Shown here: positions 197-53,273 of the stretch, piece after piece
How the letters are laid out: every line of letters starts with the position of its first letter
How positions within the stretch are numbered: the stretch's first letter is position 1
Virus record (IMG/VR): IMGVR_UViG_3300010885_031309
DNA from: a virus
Lineage: Duplodnaviria; Caudoviricetes
Strand: one strand, 5' to 3'
DNA length: 64,000 nt
Program-made: the position numbers and the translations under genes
Notes under the pieces: model-generated
Databases searched by the model: none
Told to the model about the DNA's origin: nothing
The model's input: only the letters and a program-made list of their open reading frames with translations

Positions 197-3100
197 TAGG
201 TAGTGATATAGCAGGCGGTGATGAAATCCAATTATTTCCATTCCATTTAAGAATGTCGTCTATTTGCTTAGTCGTAGTGTTGACATTTAATAACTCATCA
301 AGTGTATCACGCTGACGAACTAAGTAATTAGTTTGAGATACTATCTTTGTTGCACTTGTAACTATTTTTGCCGCTACCACTCTATTGAATGACGACGGTA
401 ATTCAGCAGTACTCGCACTAACTGTTACCGAAGTTCTGTCTCCAGCATTTTTAGTGATGTAAACATAATTAGTGGCACTGGCAATTAAATTAACACTTTG
501 AGTTGGAACAGTAGTGTAGTAACCACCAATAAACAATGGGCATTCTGTAATATATGCCACCAATCCAGTTGAGCTTTCAGCAGAAATATAAACTTGATAT
601 CTAGTAGTAGTAGCATTAAACCATTGATCCTCTGTTAACTCTGAACCAACTCCTCTGACATCACGAGATGAGACCAACGCAATGTTATCATAATTAGAGG
701 ATGATATTGCGCGATAATATCCAAGCGCCGTACTAAATCCAAATGAACTTCCTGGGTAGCCGTTTGGTTGTGTAAAGCTTCCTGCTCCAGTTGATTGAGG
801 AGCAAATCTAGTTAGATCCCCGACTGTTTCTGCTAGATTGCTGTTTGTATTAAATGATGCCCAGTACCAAGCTGATCCCCCAGTTAGCGGAATACTAAAA
901 TTAATCAATAATCTTCCATTATTTGTTAATAGCGTTGTGCCATCAAACGAAATAATATTGTTTGCGTCTCCACGACCTGTTTTACCACTGTCTATTTGTG
1001 TCTGAAAAACATTTGATGTTGCTAATTGCCACGAAGAGCCAGAATATCGTGCTATGTAAGCTAAACCAGCCGCATCGCGAACTACTGCATAAACTATTGG
1101 ACTTGATGTACTACCGTTCCACGCAGAAACTCTGTCCCAAAATACTCCAGTTTTTCCACCAAGATTACTAGGTATCACTGGCAGTGTAATTGAGGTTGCA
1201 GTATAAGTTCTAGTGTTCTGATTAGCTGTTATCGTGTGTATAGTTTGTCCTGGCATTACCCAATAATATGTAGGAGTAGTGCCAACAACCACAGTTCCAA
1301 ACGCAGAAGAATAAAAATTGTTTTTTATGAAAGTCGGTGCTGCACTCGCAGGATCCAGACTTGCATTTGCAGCATCTAATATTAGTGTGTCGTTTGTTTG
1401 CCCCTGAGCAGTAGATGTGAAAGCAGTTTTACTAAATGTTGTTTGTATTGTTTTTGATCCATATTTTACAGACTGTCCAACAAAAATAATATTATTGTCA
1501 ATTACATGTACTAAATTACTGTACAGACTTTTTGACCATGCTGAACCATCGGGAATATACTCAGAGAATGTAGTGTATTTAGATGAGTTGTTACTTCCAA
1601 AAGTCTTATAGATGTACCCGTTGCTATAAGACAACAGAAACACAGTAGCGGTTATTGCACTGTCCCATGTTCCTCGCAACACTTGAAATATATTTCCACT
1701 GTACTCATCTGTGGTAAAGTTTACGGCAAAACCAGCACCTCCACCGTTTTGACTCATACCACCATCATCAGTTTCCCATGTACTGTCTGCCAATTGATTG
1801 TATCTGAATGTGCCAGATTTGACTGGAATTAAATTAGAAGGAGTTCCTGATCCAGTTTCTATCCATGATTTTGGAACAGACCAAGATATGTCCATTGATG
1901 TATTAACTCCAACAGATGCTCCATTTTGTGTGTATATATACCATACGGTGAATTTTTGATGGAAAGTTTGCGTAAACGGATTCCAAGTAAACCCATGAAC
2001 TCCATTTGGAGCATAGGTTAACAGCGGCATAGTACTCGGAGCTATTCTGCCAGAACCTAATGTGTCAGCAGTGTTAACCATTGTGGTTTTATCATAGAGT
2101 AACTGCGATCTTAGTAATCTTTTATTGATGTCATACACTCTAAGCGTTACTTGATTTTGATCGCTACTTACACTAGACGCTAATATTCTGTCACCCGAAT
2201 TAGTAGATACCAATGAAAAGTTTGTTCTTCCATCATACAAACTAGTTACATCAGCAGCAAGAGACCAATCAGTCCAGTTGGATGAGCCATTGGTTTTTGC
2301 AATAACTACTCTGGTGTTTGTTTCTGGTTTAACTGTAGTGGAGAGTACTAGTACTACGAAAAAAGTGCCTAAGTTTAATACGTCGCGAACTTTTTCATTG
2401 CTATTCAGAAATGACGCACTGATAAATTGATTATCATATACGAATTTATCGTTTGATGTGTATCTAAAAGCACGAGCAACATTAGCTGTATTAGTTGGCG
2501 ATGATGTTGGGAAATATATTACTTGTTTACCTTCACGGTCAACAAACATAAAACTTGATGCAGCAAACCTACCCAGAGAGAATGAGAAACTTCCGTATAC
2601 AGGAATGTAATTATCTTTTAAGTATCCAGCATAGGGTGAAAAATTCAAGTAATCAGTTCTATCTACATATGCAGTAGTTGATACAGTGTCGGTAATTCCG
2701 TATCCAGCAAGAGTAGTTGGCTTATCTACTAAATTAGCAAAACTTACAAATTTCCAACTTGCGTCTGCTCCATCTGTGTGTAATACTTTATTAATATTTC
2801 CAGCTTGTGTTGGTAAAAGATTATTTAGTGCAGTCTTTTTGTCATTTGCATTGGTACCTCCATTTTGAATTGGCAATATACCATTTAACGAAACAGTTAC
2901 TGCTCCAGCAGAACCTGATACAGAAATATTGGTTCCGCCAGTTAAAGATGTAACACCAGTATTATTAATTGTTTTACCGTCAATTGAAATTCCAGCGCCG
3001 GCTGAAAACATATTCGGTCCACCGAATTGTGTGAATACTATATTTGAAGTTCCAACAGTTATAACTCCACTGGTATTCATTACCCACTGAGTGGATTCTA

Positions 3101-3848
3101 ATTCCCCCTCACCAATAAAGAATGCATCACCAGCTTTGATATTGATGGAATCGTTATAATCGTCTGTTCTGGTCAGCACATAGGGACTAGTAGTAGTTGT
3201 TACTTCATACATGCCGTTTTGCTTGGCATCAGTTTGATTTTTAACTAATACACGATCACCAAAACGAAGTGTGACACCACTAATTACTGGCAGACTTGTT
3301 GTTCCTGTTAGAGTAGCTCCAACTCCATTTGTGCCGTTTGAATATGTTGCAGTCAATGGTCCGGTTGTTCCTGCTCTAGCAGATACTCCAATTGATAGTC
3401 CATTTGCCAAATTATCTACATATTGCTTTGTTGCGGCATGCAGTCCTTGAGTTGGATCAGCATTTAATTTTAGATAGCCAGTCATTGTATCACCGGCAAT
3501 ATTAACTGCACCCAGATTTGTTCTTGCAGTCGCTTCTGTAGTAGCTCCAGTTCCACCATTTTTTATTGAAAGTGGATACTCAGATACTATATTACTTAAA
3601 ACTCCAAATTCATCAATACTTAATCCTGTTCCTATTTTTACAGAGCCAAGAGCACTTGTACTAGCTATTGGAACTAATCCAGGAGATATTGAATTTGCTG
3701 TTACTATTTCTGTATTTCCAGAATCGGCATTTCCAATAAATAATCTTTTCTGATCCGTTGCCCATCCTAATTCACCCGAATCAAGCTGGGGAAGCTCAGA
3801 ATAGTTACCGGTTTTATTAATTATCTTGCTTATTTGAAGTATTGTCAT
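1..3848 (-). CDS. Long tail fibre / fibre-like structural protein, 3' end runs off the window (absent from ORF track)
   Basis: ATG at 3848 gives MTILQISKIINKTGNYSELPQLDSGELGWATDQKRLFIG. The same frame reads the terminal 27-aa repeats at 1-196. Gly/Thr-rich fibre motifs (GGTGATT, HAATKQYVD, LVKNQTDAKQNG). Not every codon was checked for stops. Confidence 0.8.
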   Translation of the reverse strand, partial: MTILQISKIINKTGNYSELPQLDSGELGWATDQKRLFIGNADSGNTEIVTANSISPGLVPIASTSALGSVKIGTGLSIDEFGVLSNIVSEYPLSIKNGGTGATTEATARTNLGAVNIAGDTMTGYLKLNADPTQGLHAATKQYVDNLANGLSIGVSARAGTTGPLTATYSNGTNGVGATLTGTTSLPVISGVTLRFGDRVLVKNQTDAKQNGMYEVTTTTSPYVLTRTDDYNDSINIKAGDAFFIGEGELESTQWVMNTSGVITVGTSNIVFTQFGGPNMFSAGAGISIDGKTINNTGVTSLTGGTNISVSGSAGAVTVSLNGILPIQNGGTNANDKKTALNNLLPTQAGNINKVLHTDGADASWKFVSFANLVDKPTTLAGYGITDTVSTTAYVDRTDYLNFSPYAGYLKDNYIPVYGSFSFSLGRFAASSFMFVDREGKQVIYFPTSSPTNTANVARAFRYTSNDKFVYDNQFISASFLNSNEKVRDVLNLGTFFVVLVLSTTVKPETNTRVVIAKTNGSSNWTDWSLAADVTSLYDGRTNFSLVSTNSGDRILASSVSSDQNQVTLRVYDINKRLLRSQLLYDKTTMVNTADTLGSGRIAPSTMPLLTYAPNGVHGFTWNPFTQTFHQKFTVWYIYTQNGASVGVNTSMDISWSVPKSWIETGSGTPSNLIPVKSGTFRYNQLADSTWETDDGGMSQNGGGAGFAVNFTTDEYSGNIFQVLRGTWDSAITATVFLLSYSNGYIYKTFGSNNSSKYTTFSEYIPDGSAWSKSLYSNLVHVIDNNIIFVGQSVKYGSKTIQTTFSKTAFTSTAQGQTNDTLILDAANASLDPASAAPTFIKNNFYSSAFGTVVVGTTPTYYWVMPGQTIHTITANQNTRTYTATSITLPVIPSNLGGKTGVFWDRVSAWNGSTSSPIVYAVVRDAAGLAYIARYSGSSWQLATSNVFQTQIDSGKTGRGDANNIISFDGTTLLTNNGRLLINFSIPLTGGSAWYWASFNTNSNLAETVGDLTRFAPQSTGAGSFTQPNGYPGSSFGFSTALGYYRAISSSNYDNIALVSSRDVRGVGSELTEDQWFNATTTRYQVYISAESSTGLVAYITECPLFIGGYYTTVPTQSVNLIASATNYVYITKNAGDRTSVTVSASTAELPSSFNRVVAAKIVTSATKIVSQTNYLVRQRDTLDELLNVNTTTKQIDDILKWNGNNWISSPPAISLPTQTGNPNKFLKTNGTTASWEDIPVSLPAQTGNPNKFLKTNGTTASWEDIPVSLPAQTGNPNKFLK

Positions 3849-3902
3849 AGTAATACTATTTATGCAAGTAGATTATTAATAATCCGATACTATTAGGACA
3901 TA

Positions 3903-4622
3903 TCAAGTAATGTTAGACAAGTAATACTGTTCTACTCTTTTCCACCACATATCAGTGTATCGTGTAAACTCAGAACCCTCTAGTATAAATTCCTGATATT
4001 CTGGGTCGCGTGTCATTACTCCGCGGTCGTTGACATCTGGACGAACACACATCATAATCACGCCGCGATTTATAGCAGTATCATAGACTTCATTGTGTGC
4101 TTGAGCATATGCACACAATTGCATAAAATAATCATCTATCCATTCACGCTTTTTTGGCTTGTTGGTTTGCTTAAAGTCAATGATACTTTGTTGAGAAGCA
4201 TGAACACCAACGCAATCAGTTGTGCCAGCATATACTTTTGGAAAATATAGCGAAACTTCTATGCCCCAGAATTCATCACAATTGCTTAAGCCACTGCTGA
4301 TGACTGTTTCAGCCATGTGCCAACTGGGATGATGAAATGGATTTTGAGGTTTATCTGCTAATTTACCGTCACGAATATAATGCTCTAAAAATGTGTGCAT
4401 TTTGGTTCCGCGATTTGCAGCCTCAGTGGTTATTTGCTGAGCCCGTTCAGTTCCAACTCGTTTCTTCCATTCGGTTAATTGCTTAATACGCTCCGCTGGT
4501 TTTGTAGCATCAAGTATAGTAGTTACACTTGGAAGATGTGTGTCGTCGGGAGTAACATATCGTCGTTTACCGTCTATTTCTTTACGGGTAAGAGTTTTGT
4601 AGTTAAATTTTGGATTGTACAT
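3903..4622 (-). CDS. PD-(D/E)XK exonuclease
   Basis: LPSVTTIL, AANRGTKMH, E..YAGTTD..IIDFKQ and QLCAYAQA motifs. Start refined to MYNPKF. Confidence 0.85.
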   Translation of the reverse strand: MYNPKFNYKTLTRKEIDGKRRYVTPDDTHLPSVTTILDATKPAERIKQLTEWKKRVGTERAQQITTEAANRGTKMHTFLEHYIRDGKLADKPQNPFHHPSWHMAETVISSGLSNCDEFWGIEVSLYFPKVYAGTTDCVGVHASQQSIIDFKQTNKPKKREWIDDYFMQLCAYAQAHNEVYDTAINRGVIMMCVRPDVNDRGVMTRDPEYQEFILEGSEFTRYTDMWWKRVEQYYLSNIT

Positions 4623-47560: not shown

Positions 47561-48385
47561 ATGACCAACAATCCACTACAGCAATATTTTCGCAGACCAG
47601 CAATTTATATTAAGCTTCCGAGTCAAAACAAATATTATGATCAAAGCGTCATTGAACCAACTCAAACAGGAGAATTACCAGTCTATCCAATGACTGCACT
47701 GGATGAAATAACCAGTAAGACTCCAGACGCAGTGTTTAACGGACACGCAGTAGTAGATATTATTCATAGCTGCATGCCAAATATTAAAAACGCATGGGAG
47801 ATCAACAGTGTTGATCTGGACGCTATTCTTATTGCAATCAAAGTAGCCAGCACTGGTGAAAAAATGGAGATTGGAACGGTCTGTCCAAATTGCAGCACTG
47901 ATGCAACATACGATATCAGTCTAATTCAAGTGTTAAGTCAACAGCAGAATGTTGACTATGAAAAAACATTAAAAATCAGAGAATTGGAAATTAAGTTCAA
48001 ACCACTTTCATTTGCAGAAGCAAACAAAAACAATCTGGCACAGTTTGAATTACAAAAATTCCTACGAGACAGTCAATCTTATGAAGATAGTCCTGAAAAG
48101 GAACAAACAATACGCGATACTATCACCAAGTTGAATTCTCTTTTTTCAGAGATTATTAGTGGAACTGTAGAGTACATTAAAACTCCAGAATCTACTGTAC
48201 ACGAGAGAGAATTTATTAATGAGTTTATGAATAACTGTGATAGAAATACCAACTTAGCGATTCGCGAATTCAGTGTTCAATTGCGAAACGAAAATCAATT
48301 GAAACCACTGAATATAAAATGCATGCATTGCTCACATGAGTACACACAGCAATTAATATTGAATATCACTGATTTTTTCGCTTAA
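47561..48385 (+). CDS. gp26: gp26-like baseplate hub assembly protein / tail assembly chaperone
   Basis: NPLQQYFRRPAIYIKLPS, VYPMTALDEI, C..C and CMHC motifs; ends DFFA*. Confidence 0.7.
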   Translation: MTNNPLQQYFRRPAIYIKLPSQNKYYDQSVIEPTQTGELPVYPMTALDEITSKTPDAVFNGHAVVDIIHSCMPNIKNAWEINSVDLDAILIAIKVASTGEKMEIGTVCPNCSTDATYDISLIQVLSQQQNVDYEKTLKIRELEIKFKPLSFAEANKNNLAQFELQKFLRDSQSYEDSPEKEQTIRDTITKLNSLFSEIISGTVEYIKTPESTVHEREFINEFMNNCDRNTNLAIREFSVQLRNENQLKPLNIKCMHCSHEYTQQLILNITDFFA

Positions 48386-48422
48386 AGCTTCTATCATTGG
48401 ATCATGCCGAAATGAAGAAGCT
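48373..48422 (+). promoter_or_regulatory. Putative programmed -1 ribosomal frameshift signal
   Basis: Slippery T TTT TTC at 48373-48379, 6-nt spacer, hairpin AGCTTCT-A-TCATT / AATGA-AGAAGCT at 48386-48422. Confidence 0.7.
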
Positions 48423-48609
48423 GGGCGAAGTCATGTGGCATGAAGCACTTGGCATCAAGGCTCAAGCAATTAAAATGGCTTGGTATACCCGAGGTAGCAT
48501 GCAATATGTAGATGTACTTAATTTGAGCAAAGACGAATTGGATCAGCTAAGTAAATTAGTTGATTCCAATATGGAAACTACTAAGAAGACCAAATTACCA
48601 TTCTTCTAA
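48373..48609 (+). CDS. -1-frame ORF (gp51-like), probably made as a frameshift fusion to the gp26-like protein
   Basis: The frame opens exactly at the T_TTT_TTC site; no clear SD before its own starts. Confidence 0.65.
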   Translation, partial: FFRLKLLSLDHAEMKKLGEVMWHEALGIKAQAIKMAWYTRGSMQYVDVLNLSKDELDQLSKLVDSNMETTKKTKLPFF

Positions 48610-48670: not shown

Positions 48671-48698
48671 GTAATCTCTCTCTGTTATATATTAATTA

Positions 48699-48886
48699 GA
48701 TGTATTTCCGTGATTTATGACAGCCATATATGTGATGCGTATTTCAGTGAGATATCTTAGTGACATATTAGTGATGTCTTAGTTATATCTCTCAATAATG
48801 CGTGTGTGATGTATTTCAGTTATGTCTTAGTGATTCATATGAATTAGTAGTCTGATATCTGTACAGATGTATTTCAGTGATATCAG
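48699..48886. repeat. Iteron-like repeats GATGTATTTCAGTGA (4 copies) with TCTTAGT(G/T)A units
   Basis: Copies at 48699, 48734, 48808 and 48866 in non-coding AT-rich DNA. Confidence 0.75.
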
Positions 48887-49009
48887 TAAAAACTAAATTA
48901 GTTGAAAAGAAGTCTGTTTGTGTCAGTCGGAGAGCGCAGCGAGAAGAACTGACACAAACATGGCTGTTGAGCAAAGCGAGACAGCCAACTGACTGTAATT
49001 ATTTGATAA

Positions 49010-49345
49010 AATATCAGGGTCCTCCCCCTTGTTCTTTGAAGACAGCTATTTTTCGCTGTGGGAAGAACGTTCGTTGAACCACCAAAACCCTTTAATTTTT
49101 TGCCCGTTGATCTGTCAGGCGCAGTAGAGCCTTGCCTAAGGGCGGGAGCATCGGTTCCGAATCTATTGAGTACATCCATACTCTATTCGGCACTCCCCAC
49201 TAGTTTACCCACTGTGATCTTAGTATTGTCCGATCTTCAACAGTGCTTCGCCGTGAGCAGTAAAGGCTGTACTCACAATGTTACTAGTTATTTTAGACAG
49301 GTCTGTTGTTTGACCTGTGTTAGTCTATCTTTTTCATAGACCCAT
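49010..49345 (-). ncRNA. Candidate structured non-coding RNA of unknown class
   Basis: GC-richer, no credible CDS, several nested stems with G.U pairs on the minus strand. Confidence 0.45.
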
Positions 49346-49363
49346 TATTTCACAGTAACAATC

Positions 49364-49558
49364 TTACAGTGAAAGTTTTTTTTCTATTATTATTACTGTT
49401 CCGTCCTTTTTTATAACTCTGATAAATGATTTGTCTTGTGGGCTAATTTTTTTAGCTTTAATCTTACTCTTTGGTTTTCCAGAGTAGGCATTTTCTGATT
49501 GCTTTTTTAGTTTTTTTGCTCGTCTCCAACGCAGAATATCTCTTCTATCACAGTGCAT
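49364..49558 (-). CDS. Small, highly basic protein
   Basis: ATG 1 nt after the upstream TGA; K/R-rich, 64 aa. Confidence 0.6.
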   Translation of the reverse strand: MHCDRRDILRWRRAKKLKKQSENAYSGKPKSKIKAKKISPQDKSFIRVIKKDGTVIIIEKKLSL

Positions 49559-49559
49559 A

Positions 49560-50075
49560 TCATTCTTTCTTTTCTGAAATGTATTTAAGTCTGTTTTTAT
49601 TGCTGGCAAAAAAAATATCCATGTCGCTTATTATCCATGCGTTGTAGTTTGGGCTAGTATAAACAGTATGATTTTTTAGATCCCAATCGTATTTTTTTTC
49701 TACTGCAATGAATTTTCCAACACGAGTTATTTTCATAAACAAACAATTGACACTGTTATCATCACCACTAGTTACTAGTTGATTTAGCCAGATCTCAAGT
49801 TGTTTGCACTCATTACTTAAAAGTAAATTAAAAGGAAACTTGGAATAAGACTTGCATTCACAATTAAGAAGATTGAAGCTTTCTGGTACAATAATGTCGC
49901 CTCTTGTATGACGAATTTGTTCCGCTGTCAGTGAAGATTTGCGACTAATATTTTTACCTCCAACATAAGAGCCACTACCACTTAAATTTCTTATAAATGA
50001 TTCATTGTATGTATTGGAAAGATACTTTGCTACTTCTCTTTCCCAACTTGACCCTTTTGTTTTTTGCTTGCTCAT
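49560..50075 (-). CDS. Hjc-like PD-(D/E)XK nuclease (putative Holliday junction resolvase)
   Basis: KGSSWEREVAKYL...GDII...CECKSY. Confidence 0.7.
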   Translation of the reverse strand: MSKQKTKGSSWEREVAKYLSNTYNESFIRNLSGSGSYVGGKNISRKSSLTAEQIRHTRGDIIVPESFNLLNCECKSYSKFPFNLLLSNECKQLEIWLNQLVTSGDDNSVNCLFMKITRVGKFIAVEKKYDWDLKNHTVYTSPNYNAWIISDMDIFFASNKNRLKYISEKKE

Positions 50076-50114: not shown

Positions 50115-53100
50115 CTATTCTTCCAATTCCTTCAAACTTGTAAACCCATTTTCCTTTACTACTTTTACTGTGTTATTAACTCTGTTGGTCAACTCATCGC
50201 GATGACTTACTAGCCATACCGATTTGTTTCTATTTCTGCTAAAGTCTTTCAGTAGTGCAAGACCGTTCTCAATGCCCACGGTGTCCATGCCCGAGTCCAT
50301 TAGTTCATCAATAAACATTACATTAACTGATTGATAAAGATTTTCCCACACATCGCGAAATGCAAATGACAGTCCTAAAATAACTCTAGTGCGTTCACCT
50401 CTGCTAAGTGAGTCAAAATCTAGCTCTCGTCCAAGTTCTGTAATTTCAACACTTAAATCATTTTGAAATACCACGCGATGTGGTAATCCTATGCGATCCA
50501 AGTAATGCGACAGTCTGTTATTCAAATATGACAAATTCTGTTCAATGATTTTTTTGCGAACAAATGACTTTTTGTTAGTTAATAGATCCAACAAATAGTC
50601 TTGGTGTTGTAGTAATCGGGTCAGTCTGTTGATCTCACTAAAGTCAACTGTTTGTATAGCATTAGTTTGCATTTCTGCGATTTGTTCAGCATACGGATCT
50701 TCTTCACTGTGTTTCTTTTGTATTTGATCCAATAGTGTTTGTACGCGACTGCTGTGCTTAAATGCCGCCTCTTCAGTGTCATAGTGTGTTTTTGGCTGCG
50801 GACCCAATACTAGAGTGCTGTTCTCTAACAGTTGCTCAGCATATGGGTCAGTTTCGCTTAGCTTGTCTTCTATTTGCTTGCTGATACGATCTACTTCACT
50901 ACTGTGCTTAATAGCTTCAGCGTGTGTGTTGTAGTGTGTAGTGGGCTTATTGCCAACAATCACTTCGCTATTTACTAGCTTGTTCCATAATTCATGTGCT
51001 GCGGCATAGCCTTCATTTGTCTCTACTAGAAGTTTTCGTTTCTTCTCTAATACCTCGGTGTGCTTACTATCGTGAAACTCTTGTCCACACGCATAGCAAC
51101 GATGCTGTTCTAGCTCATGTACTTCTTCTTGTAGCTTTTGTGCTGACTTAGCTAGCTTTTCGCCGTCGCTCTTTGCTCGTTGTAATTCTTTAGCCCAGAT
51201 TTCACGCTCAGATACTTTTGTATTGTGAATTGCTAGTTCAGAGTGTGCTGATAATTCGGCAGCAATATCAATTTTGGTAAGCTTAGTCAAGCTACTCTGT
51301 AGAGCGGCCACTTCTTTGTCTAGCTTTTGTCTCCATGCAGTCTGTCTAGCCAAAACGGCATCATAGCGATCAAGCTTTTCTTTGTTAGAGTTCCATACGG
51401 CCAAATCTTTGTGTGCCGCTAATTCGGCGCCAATATCCACAAGTTGCAATTGGTCGTATTCTGTTACTAACTTAAGCAAGTCTTCGTCTCGCTTGGCAAT
51501 CCATAGACGCTGACGCTTCTTTAGACTGTCAATCTGTTCAGTAATACGCTTGTTTGCCGCCTCAACTCCATTTACACGAAACTCTTCTCGCTGAATGTCT
51601 TCTTTTGTAGTCTTGTTTAGTTCTTTGATAGCATCTGCTTTTTCGCTTAGCAGAGTGATTCCAAGTAGTTGTTCAATGATCGTGCGTTGATCACTGACAC
51701 GCATACTTAGAAACGGTGTAGTGTAGCTATTGAGACCAACAATATGTTGAAACATATCACTGGACATACCCAGAATACGCTCAATTGCTTGTTGAGTTTC
51801 TTTGTTTTCACCCTGTGCGTCATTGTCATCACTTGATTGTTGTTTGTTATTGACATAGAACTTTAGCACATTTGGTTTACGACCACGAACAATCTGATAA
51901 TCATTATCATTAACAGTGAATTCAACAACGGCATGCATTTGTTTGCCATTTGTTCTATTAATCAAATTGTCTTTCTTAATTTGATTAATAGGGCTACCGA
52001 ATAGTGCATAGCTTAGACCCTGCAATATAGTGGTATTGTGAGTTACTACATAATTATCAGTGACATATAAATGATCTTTGTGATCTATAGCAATACATTG
52101 ACATTCGGAGTTGTCAATTTTTTGAATATCAGATATTTGTAGACGAAGTTGATCAGCATATTGATAATCTGCGCTTATCCTGTCAAGTTTTCTTGACAAC
52201 GAAAATAATTTTTTTGGATTATGATAGCGAATTAAAACTATATATGCTTTTTTACCTTCTTTTTTCTCATTCAAATAAGTAAAGCGTGGTATTTTTTCTC
52301 TTATTCTGGCAATTCCACCGATACTACGAATTAAGTCGGTTACATCCATGGCAAGTTGCTTGCTACTAGAAGAAAAAGATATAGATCCGGTTCTGTCAAC
52401 GGTGCCGTCTGTATCTAATAATCCACGAAGCAATTCTAATTTTTGAGAAACGCTAATATTTTTGTAAATTTCTGGTATAAATTTTTCTTCGCTGTTTACA
52501 TTTAATTTTAAATCAATAAGACGCGACCTTAATGGGTGAGTAATTTTTTTGGGATTATTTTTTCTGTGATTCATCACAACTCTATATGAAATTTTAGGAC
52601 GAGTTGTTGACTGTGATTGTCTCAATGAGCAATCAATTAATTGTAGTTCATCGTTTACTCGTGTGAGTATTTCTTGATCCACAGATGTTATACCAACAGA
52701 TGATTTTAAATGTCCGTCTCCGAGTAACGCTCCCAAAGTATAACAAGAAATAGGAACAGATACATTCTCTGTATCTCTAGGAGTATACAGAGGGACATAC
52801 AAAAAGTTAAACGCCTTTTTCTTTTGAGAATTTACATTTAGTAGTTCAATCAGTTCAAGTGTTGTCAGAATTCTTGTATGATTGATATCTGTTTTATTGC
52901 GAAACAGATGACTGTATACATTCCATAAATGATCTTCGCTTGCCTCACATGTACGACCGTCTCTGAATGTAAATTTGTAAACGGATTTAATTCCTTGTGG
53001 ATATACTCCAATCACTTTGGCTAATGAGCCATCATGAGCAATAACGCTATCTCCAACACTGATATCTCGCATAAGAGTCCATCCGTGAGGAGTTAATATA

Positions 53101-53273
53101 TTACTAGTTAGTGGTTGTGCTTTGCCAGTACCATTCCTTGAGCCATCACCGCCCAAATCTAAGTTTTCGCCTAGAATCAGTGTAAGATCCTTGCGATCAA
53201 AATTTATTTCCTGTTCTACATTTCCAATGCTTAGAAAATTTTTAAGTCGCAGTGTTTTTAGTTTTATACTCAT
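50115..53273 (-). CDS. gp46: Recombination endonuclease ATPase subunit (SbcC/Rad50-like) with an intein
   Basis: NFLSIGN, NGTGK|TT, LSRGE, FIDELMD and VSHR motifs. Confidence 0.93.
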   Translation of the reverse strand: MSIKLKTLRLKNFLSIGNVEQEINFDRKDLTLILGENLDLGGDGSRNGTGKAQPLTSNILTPHGWTLMRDISVGDSVIAHDGSLAKVIGVYPQGIKSVYKFTFRDGRTCEASEDHLWNVYSHLFRNKTDINHTRILTTLELIELLNVNSQKKKAFNFLYVPLYTPRDTENVSVPISCYTLGALLGDGHLKSSVGITSVDQEILTRVNDELQLIDCSLRQSQSTTRPKISYRVVMNHRKNNPKKITHPLRSRLIDLKLNVNSEEKFIPEIYKNISVSQKLELLRGLLDTDGTVDRTGSISFSSSSKQLAMDVTDLIRSIGGIARIREKIPRFTYLNEKKEGKKAYIVLIRYHNPKKLFSLSRKLDRISADYQYADQLRLQISDIQKIDNSECQCIAIDHKDHLYVTDNYVVTHNTTILQGLSYALFGSPINQIKKDNLINRTNGKQMHAVVEFTVNDNDYQIVRGRKPNVLKFYVNNKQQSSDDNDAQGENKETQQAIERILGMSSDMFQHIVGLNSYTTPFLSMRVSDQRTIIEQLLGITLLSEKADAIKELNKTTKEDIQREEFRVNGVEAANKRITEQIDSLKKRQRLWIAKRDEDLLKLVTEYDQLQLVDIGAELAAHKDLAVWNSNKEKLDRYDAVLARQTAWRQKLDKEVAALQSSLTKLTKIDIAAELSAHSELAIHNTKVSEREIWAKELQRAKSDGEKLAKSAQKLQEEVHELEQHRCYACGQEFHDSKHTEVLEKKRKLLVETNEGYAAAHELWNKLVNSEVIVGNKPTTHYNTHAEAIKHSSEVDRISKQIEDKLSETDPYAEQLLENSTLVLGPQPKTHYDTEEAAFKHSSRVQTLLDQIQKKHSEEDPYAEQIAEMQTNAIQTVDFSEINRLTRLLQHQDYLLDLLTNKKSFVRKKIIEQNLSYLNNRLSHYLDRIGLPHRVVFQNDLSVEITELGRELDFDSLSRGERTRVILGLSFAFRDVWENLYQSVNVMFIDELMDSGMDTVGIENGLALLKDFSRNRNKSVWLVSHRDELTNRVNNTVKVVKENGFTSLKELEE
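52035..53120 (-). mobile_element. Ala1 class-3 (WCT) LAGLIDADG intein (362 aa) in the gp46 Walker A motif
   Basis: GTGK|AQPLTS...EDHLW...LGALLGDG...RGLLDTDG...CQCIAID...VTHN|T. Confidence 0.92.

Follow-up and report, generated by a model that had tools for sequence, protein, structure and literature searches.

A structured RNA family predicted in the recombination/replication region of a clade of aquatic T4-related giant phages

The window analyzed here is a stretch of 64,000 nucleotides (nt) of IMG/VR virus record IMGVR_UViG_3300010885_031309, which is part of the genome of a giant myophage that is uncultured and has RaK2, PA5oct, SCTP-2, Atu_ph07 and Phosso as distant relatives, and its DNA was found in freshwater and aquaculture metagenomes. 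Two convergent gene sets are separated by a gap in which the gene of a putative structured non-coding RNA is located. On one side of this gap, the plus strand carries a baseplate-hub gene (47561-48385) and a gp51-like gene (48397-48609), the latter followed by a canonical terminator. On the other side, the minus strand carries an intein-containing gp46-like gene (50115-53273), a PDDEXK_15 nuclease gene (49560-50075) and, directly upstream of the RNA, a gene for a basic protein of 64 amino acids (aa) (49364-49558). An earlier note, prepared from the sequence alone, had placed a structured RNA of ~330 nt at 49010-49345. The structured RNA was confirmed, with a conserved core slightly narrower than this extent. 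This core of about 303 nt occupies positions 49020-49322 of the minus strand, with the 5' end near 49322 and with a 3' end formed by the G-rich run GGGGGAGGA, ending at 49020.

Related loci were obtained by several routes. Contig L004 was found by an exact 20-mer scan of IMG/VR, further loci were fetched with the adjacent small protein as a handle and then by its profile search, and additional loci came from pattern scans with a hidden Markov model (HMM) filter. The resulting set, taken from Logan, ENA, JGI and IMG/VR assemblies, comprises 17 distinct RNAs (the window and 16 relatives). The gene order is the same in all loci: whether or not the small gene is present, the RNA comes directly after the gp47-gp46-PDDEXK genes, shares their strand and points towards the gp51-like and baseplate-hub genes. 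A blastn search of the gap against 50,697 phage records gave no match. Models of the centre (R1) and the 3' half (R2) of the RNA, together with HMMs of both ends, gave no credible match in 80 IMG/VR loci with a related hub gene, nor in PA5oct, Phosso and SCTP-2, and the best match, in L007, was rejected because it lies inside a 409-aa open reading frame (ORF). A pattern scan of 185,579 prokaryote genomes yielded 98 matches, every one of which failed the HMM filter and was attributed to chance, and L093, from a metagenome scan, was also a chance match. As no members were found among the distant hub-gene relatives, the family seems to be confined to one clade. At 3480-4495 of the Phosso sequence (L096), a 1-kb gap without annotated genes is located between an RNase HI gene and a resolvase-like gene; neither R1 nor R2 matches anything there, and the gap may hold a different element.

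The limits of the conserved unit (49020-49322) are set by two kinds of comparison. Contigs of further relatives, from four DNA metagenomes, stop matching the window at 49020 and at about 49319-49320, and the loci L091 and L092 share 99% identity over exactly the core block while both of their flanks are unrelated, so that the RNA behaves as a discrete module. The core is 93% identical to L004/L087, versus 69-80% for the flanking genes; between L004 and the window, identity is about 93% in the gap (49018-49420) and 69.5% for the hub gene. Three comparisons of the core with the flanking genes gave 93.4% versus 75-80%, 81.5% versus 62-67% and 78.1% versus 59-68%. Judged from these alignments, the core is always more strongly conserved than the genes around it, and this stricter conservation makes it very likely that the RNA is functional. 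The GC fraction is 0.44-0.54 in the segment versus 0.28-0.33 in the flanks, in agreement with the GC rise described previously.

Folding of the single sequence was only moderately better than that of shuffled sequences (z = -2.35 for the minus strand and -2.17 for the plus strand). Since these scores are modest and both strands behave alike, the case for a structure rests on comparative evidence. Among the first six sequences, 18-19 of 84 predicted pairs displayed compensatory double changes, and an improved model was built by a column-pair scan and direct reading on more diverse sequences. With this model, 91.2% of the cells in the 5' half (15 RNAs) form standard pairs, versus 27-51% when the partners are slid, changes on both sides occur in 12 of 23 pairs, and none of 500 shuffles reaches the observed values. 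In the 3' half (17 RNAs), 84.3% of the cells pair, versus 41-54% in the slid controls, in an alignment that was fitted to model R2 and is hence somewhat biased towards it. Cells with G.U exceed those with A.C by 33:7 and 73:9, an excess that assigns the RNA sense to the minus strand of the window, the polarity that G.U pairs in the single sequence had suggested. Covariation in relatives, to which the earlier note had looked beforehand as a test of its proposal, is present, and at least nine helices are, as read from the alignments, kept by compensatory changes. Pairing beyond the controls and the strand-specific G.U pairs are comparative grounds on which the element is classed as a structured non-coding RNA.

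The eight stems named in the earlier note are all contained in the minus-strand sequence. Six of them are kept as real helices by compensatory changes in relatives (ACAGGTC/GACCTGT, GTGAG/CTCAC, GGGAGTG/TGCTCCC, CCGAAT/ATTCGG, GAGTA/TACTC and ACAGC/GCTGT), the stem TCTTCCC/GGGGAGG is weak and GTCTAT/ATAGAC is limited to some lineages. From the 5' end, the core begins with hairpin H1 (ACAGGUC/GACCUGU, 49297-49318), which is present in 17/17 RNAs with the conserved loop AAACAACA and whose stem variants ACAGGUC, AUAGGUC and AGUC each have the matching partner. The invariant junction AACUAG.AACGUU leads to hairpin H3 (UUGUGAG/CUCACGG, 49251-49278), with a loop of 14-16 nt that contains the conserved ACAGCC; changes on both sides were observed in 5/7 of its pairs, and two invariant U.G pairs mark the strand. 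Helix H4 (49210-49245), found as CACUG/CAGUG, CUCUG/CAGAG or GUCUG/CAGAC, surrounds hairpin H5 (GAUC/GAUC), in which 4/4 pairs covary and 100% of the cells are paired. The 12-nt loop of H5, GGACAAUACUAA (49220-49231), has the invariant form GG(A/U)CAAUACUAA. Next comes an arm of three helices, GGGAGUG/UGCUCCC, CCGAAU/AUUCGG and GAGUA/UACUC, closed by the terminal loop UGGAU (49144-49197), all three of which covary.

Hairpin H9 (49129-49143) consists of a stem of three base pairs, GCC/GGC in the window and GUC/GAC, GCA/UGC or GCU/AGC in relatives, and a conserved 9-nt loop, CUUAGGCAA. It is followed by hairpin H11 (49102-49120), with stem variants GCCUG/CGGGC, GUCCA/UGGGC and CCCG/CGGG and the conserved loop ACAGAUCAA, in which the segment ACAGAUUAA is kept. 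Hairpin H13 (ACAGC/GCUGU, 49042-49059), with the conserved loop GAAAAAUA, covaries in 5/5 pairs (ACGGU/GCCGU, GGUUG/CAACC, CCAGU/ACUGG and CUCAC/GUGAG). The invariant loops and joining segments of the core are AAACAACA, AACUAG.AACGUU, CAAUACUAA, CUUAGGCAA, ACAGAUUAA, GAAAAAUA and the 3' G run followed by AGG. Less certain elements were found between and around these hairpins. The small hairpin region P-k (UUGGUGG-UUCA-ACGAACG, 49068-49085) is weakly supported; its core pairs U.G, G:C and C:G are conserved and its loop is, depending on the lineage, UUCA, UUCG, CUCA or five nucleotides. The stem TCTTCCC/GGGGAGG corresponds to a possible helix N that would close the 3' domain (49020-49066) by pairing UCUUCCC (49060-49066) with GGGAGGA (49020-49026). 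In this helix, 79.5% of the cells pair, with little covariation and inconsistent outer pairs, and an alternative pairing GUUCUU/AAGAAC is possible; the data for the 3' domain fit a pseudoknot or a nested helix.

The H3 loop has a GCCU sequence complementary to AGGC in the H9 loop, and in L104 these are GCCG and CGGC. This single compensatory event hints that the two loops may form a kissing contact. In lineages with a short arm, a GGAA tetraloop would be the partner instead. Four helices proposed by RNAalifold (its helices 4-7: the long-range UCG/CGA, UACUAAGAUC/GGGUUUUGGUG, CAGUGGGU/GCUCUACUG and CUAG/UUAG) never vary and are contradicted by the new sequences; they were discarded and replaced by H4, H5 and H9. 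A pairing of the twin-hairpin loops downstream of the core, described below, with the GGAGAAGC junction was also rejected, as it is inconsistent across lineages.

The central arm exists in at least three forms: the long three-helix arm with H9 in the window, L004 and L085-L104, a short hairpin capped by GGAA in L115, L119, L122 and L134, and an unrelated longer insert in L106 and L108. The 5' and 3' parts of the RNA are recognizable with every form. Locus L092 shares its flanks with L115/L134 and differs from them in the central form, from which it follows that related phages exchange the central domain. Near-identical flanks with different central RNA domains, or the same RNA with different flanks, were observed for L092 versus L115/L134 and for L091 versus L122, and the locus is a recombination mosaic. 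The combination of invariant unpaired segments and an exchangeable arm suggests the pattern of RNAs with a tertiary fold.

That the segment is no RNA, and instead codes for a protein or acts as DNA, for example as a binding array or a single-strand DNA structure, can for practical purposes be dismissed. ORFs of 93 aa are present on both strands of the stretch, and single-stranded DNA of the same polarity would tolerate G.T pairs as well. However, a 1-nt indel that distinguishes L004 from the window disrupts both ORFs, and the one at 48898-49179, whose conservation would have counted against the RNA according to the earlier note, is disrupted by a 1-nt indel in the nearest relative and missing from others. 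None of the reading frames stays open throughout the lineages, stop-free stretches do not exceed 47 codons in L089, L103 and L122, the substitutions follow no period of three, and the translated 93-aa ORF has no relative among 5.8 billion protein sequences and no Pfam family. Moreover, the compensatory changes keep pairing rather than sequence, and the strand asymmetry is incompatible with a duplex DNA site.

Membership in a known class of large RNA (RNase P RNA, group I intron, tmRNA or a GOLLD/ROOL-like RNA), as a very divergent form missed by the models, is also very improbable, and this reading is largely refuted, although the RNA is ribozyme-like in size and architecture, in that its periphery is modular, one form has a GNRA cap and two loops may kiss, and some short look-alike strings can be picked out by eye. 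The 4227 models of Rfam 15, which include RNase P, tmRNA, group I/II introns, 6S, SRP, GOLLD, ROOL, HEARO and riboswitches, gave no match at the gathering score in the whole window, and ARAGORN found no tRNA or tmRNA gene in it, so the earlier failure to recognize tRNA, tmRNA, RNase P or group I/II introns stands. When 341-2171 nt of three members were scanned by cmscan with permissive filters (E up to 10), only unrelated matches of 14-20 bits (E 0.4-9) and none to these families were obtained. The mark of RNase P RNA is the long-range helix P4, formed by CR-I (GAGGAAAGUCC) and CR-V (ACAGAA..). The CR-I-like string GGAGAAAGUCU of L103, however, forms the 5' side of H4, which is a local helix that covaries, and ACAGA makes up the loop of hairpin H11, so this candidate was rejected. 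A group I intron was rejected too: the upstream ORF ends before the core, there are no exons, and the sequence after the core is unrelated and unalignable between lineages, with ORFs of only 2-17 codons in most of them. The consensus shows no acceptor-like pairing between the 5' and 3' termini.

Several elements flank the core. Hairpin H0 (GUCUAU-GAAAAAG-AUAGAC, 49323-49341) is the remaining stem of the earlier note, GTCTAT/ATAGAC; the hairpin is real, and its stem shows covariation in the window clade, L089 and L098, but it lies outside the block common to all relatives. It is placed between the stop codon of the small gene and H1, and it is absent where this stop codon is less than 20 nt from H1. 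A promoter-like site, TTCACT-18-(TG)aAATAAT (49344-49373, minus strand), overlaps the last codons of the small gene, and L091/L092 have a TAAAAT box 7 nt before H1, within their 99% shared block. Downstream, the core is separated by a variable spacer (48987-49019 in the window, ~30-110 nt, unalignable between lineages) from two hairpins. Hairpin A (48962-48986) has a covarying stem and the conserved loop (C/U)UCGCU(U/G)(U/C)GCUCAA, and it was found in nearly all loci reaching that far, with other repeats in its place in L104. Hairpin B (48916-48959) has a stem of 12 base pairs, the loop UCGCUGCGCUC and a U-rich stretch behind it; its stems differ and its loops are conserved between lineages, the U-rich tail is present in most of them, and hairpin B is likely the 3' end of the transcript. 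The twin hairpins (48916-48986; seen in the window, L085, L087, L091, L092, L098, L100, L101, L103, L106, L119 and L122) keep UCGCU..GCUC in their loops, while the stem sequences change completely from one lineage to another and from one copy to the other. They may bind a protein or form a piece of the RNA 3' end. This loop motif occurs nowhere else in the window, and spacer, core and hairpins match the rest of it only by 11-12-mers, at chance level.

Beyond the hairpins, at 48690-48900, there is AT-rich DNA (29-31% GC) with iteron-like repeats. A repeat unit of the TGATATCA type is common to this DNA and to the region downstream of hairpin B in the distant L106, and is not found in L004; this sharing bears on the candidate origin considered below. 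The G-rich 3' tail of the RNA (window 49010-49026) resembles a strong Shine-Dalgarno sequence, and the tail of L104, GGGGGGUGAUCC (~3020-3035), is complementary to 11 nt of the 3' end of 16S rRNA. A NUG codon often stands 0-3 nt after the tail, and the ORFs behind it are tiny and unrelated.

The small gene next to the RNA encodes a 64-aa protein (MHCDRRDI..W ... IRVIKKDGTV) with 14 relatives of 57-67 aa that share the conserved ends MHC.R.DI..W and IRVIKKDGTV. Its AF2 model is non-globular, with a helix at residues 5-26 and a beta hairpin at 45-59. No family was found in Pfam, PHROGs or ESM Atlas, and tblastn gave no phage match. In 12 lineages, the gene immediately precedes the RNA in the same orientation, and all contigs with the protein gene and enough downstream DNA also carry the RNA. 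The reverse does not hold: in L092, L115, L119, L122 and L134 the RNA follows the PDDEXK gene directly, and the protein profile found nothing in the 184-kb and 104-kb records of two RNA-only lineages, which are 52% and 29% complete. Two 34-nt direct repeats, each starting with GTTCGAAC and ending with GGTCGATCTAC, replace the protein gene before the RNA in L092 (2985-3075) and at the same place in L115/L134. The neighborhood holds other insertions as well. An intein-like insert splits the gp46-like recombination nuclease subunit, whose ORF has 1052 aa versus ~690 aa in relatives such as L087, and insertions close to the PDDEXK gene encode homing endonucleases of the GIY-YIG or HNH type in L103 (341-982), L104 (1073-1624) and a contig of P0008.

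The reading that positions 49020-49322 of the minus strand encode a structured non-coding RNA of about 300 nt, from a family not described before and belonging to one clade of aquatic T4-related giant phages, is well supported by the comparisons of sequences. The earlier suggestion of a novel phage RNA was thus borne out, as the element is conserved, structured, non-coding, on the minus strand and without an Rfam family. As for its mode of action, a discrete, compact RNA with a tertiary fold that acts in trans is given somewhat better than even chances. Transcription would run leftward, starting at the -10-like box shortly before the RNA or, if the RNA forms the tail of an operon transcript, arriving from gp47-gp46-PDDEXK, and would cross the variable spacer into the two conserved-loop hairpins, the second of which would end the transcript. 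The core would then act in trans as a protein-binding scaffold or as a catalytic or ligand-binding RNA, rather than as a mere primer or terminator. Such a role is suggested by features typical of compact scaffolds, ribozymes and ligand binders, namely invariant single strands, numerous A-rich loops, a periphery that can be swapped and a GNRA cap.

Several points weigh against this reading. The 17 RNAs come from a single clade and about ten lineages, so common descent is reflected in some of the counts, and helices N and P-k and the H3-H9 loop contact have little covariation behind them. No RNA run was found among the sequencing runs listed as containing the stretch, and the ends, abundance and transcription of the RNA are all deduced; the promoter-like site is a consensus match (9/12), and hairpin B was not a canonical terminator in the terminator scan. 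A putative trans-acting folded RNA is, besides, a generic class, and the AT-rich iteron-like DNA adjoining the locus fits a role in cis at an origin equally well.

Such an origin transcript, the main rival and akin to the R-loop primer suggested in the earlier note, is considered unlikely. It would prime or license leading-strand synthesis in cis and, through its fold and its G-rich 3' end, govern a lasting hybrid of RNA and DNA beside the AT-rich repeats. Its models are ColE1 RNA II, mitochondrial CSB II and the transcripts of T4 oriF/oriG/oriE. The RNA stands at the end of a recombination/replication operon and points to the AT-rich repeats at 48690-48900 between the convergent operons, its core always ends in 5-7 G followed by AGG, and the twin hairpins with conserved loops occur only at this locus of the window. 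T4 provides a precedent, as its origins are located in strand-switch regions and are primed by transcripts, with oriE combining iterons and an early promoter (PMC3016281). However, R-loop formation in T4 needs no specific sequence (PMC3016281), whereas loops and junctions are invariant here across lineages whose proteins are 35-50% identical. In addition, the variable spacer and a terminator-like hairpin intervene between the core and the AT-rich DNA, and the iteron sequences are not conserved in L004. Less probable still is a ribonucleoprotein in which the 64-aa protein would bind, for example, H0 or the A-rich loops and act together with the RNA. The protein is very basic and has an arginine/lysine-rich N-terminus in addition to its non-globular fold, the hairpin with the GAAAAAG loop comes after its stop codon, and the adjacency in 12 lineages and the presence of the RNA on the protein-bearing contigs are in its favor, yet adjacency in a syntenic block is weak evidence and H0 is not in the common core. 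Strict co-occurrence was not observed, since five lineages, one of them at 99% RNA identity, have no such gene between PDDEXK and the RNA, and no copy was detected in the two partial genomes of 184 kb and 104 kb. The partnership with this protein proposed in the earlier note is hence weakened and an obligatory one is unlikely; an accessory role of the protein is possible, and the protein may depend on the locus and not the reverse.

A cis-acting 3' element of the operon mRNA is quite improbable. It would be a nuclease-resistant 3' untranslated region or terminator complex, or a switch that masks or exposes the Shine-Dalgarno-like GGAGG tail of a small ORF located downstream. No terminator separates the upstream ORF from the RNA, the tail GGGGGAGGA may pair with UCUUCCC or be freed by GUUCUU/AAGAAC, and the NUG codons behind the tail and the 16S complementarity of L104 agree with a switch. 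On the other hand, the downstream ORFs of 2-17 codons in most lineages are mutually unrelated, nine conserved helices with invariant loops far exceed the needs of a 3' stabilizer, and the module moves independently of its flanks.

It is rather unlikely that this RNA represents a new functional class of phage RNA with an activity of its own, as a ribozyme or ligand binder, or an initiator RNA that bears the specificity of an origin in a swappable arm. Very few large phage RNAs with a complex fold have been described, and each of them so far (pRNA, GOLLD, ROOL) has opened structural and mechanistic work. The RNA is useful for study by its clean boundaries, strong covariation, natural domain-swap variants and fixed place by recombination/replication genes and a candidate origin. 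These properties make it an attractive target for structure determination and for work on replication initiation, or on uses of RNA other than tRNAs, in giant T4-related phages. A putative gene that annotation pipelines miss thus occupies the largest non-coding gap of the genome, and spurious 93-aa ORFs may be called across it.

The trans-acting folded RNA favored here can be compared with several known systems. Among phage RNAs that work with proteins are lambda boxB, with N, and phi29 pRNA, and the resemblance to them consists of a small arginine/lysine-rich phage protein encoded beside a hairpin with an A-rich loop (H0). As differences, the H0 loop has 7 nt, H0 is absent from many lineages, the RNA persists without the protein gene and is not near packaging genes, and it has no homology to pRNA or boxB. 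With group I introns and RNase P RNA it shares features of architecture only, namely a conserved core, exchangeable arms, a GNRA-capped form and a possible loop-loop contact, whereas their covariance models are unmatched and there is no splice-site helix, exon, P4-type long-range helix or pre-tRNA context. The likeness to ColE1 RNA II and the transcripts of T4 oriF/oriG/oriE (PMC3016281) lies in a gene that points into AT-rich repeat DNA in a strand-switch region, beside replication/recombination genes, and in the G-rich 3' part. In contrast to the giant-phage RNA, T4 R-loops need no specific RNA sequence or fold, and RNA II is controlled by an antisense RNA, of which there is no sign at this locus. 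The spacer and the terminator-like hairpin that separate the RNA from the AT-rich DNA are a further difference, and the origin role is putative here. GOLLD, ROOL, OLE, raiA and HEARO were discovered by comparative analysis, several of them in DNA of phages or prophages, before any function was known for them. The giant-phage RNA matches none of their Rfam models, is smaller than GOLLD and ROOL, and differs from these orphan RNAs in that it is not beside tRNA genes, keeps a fixed place after recombination genes and, so far, belongs to one phage clade. What it has in common with them is a length of hundreds of nucleotides, many covarying helices and invariant loops.

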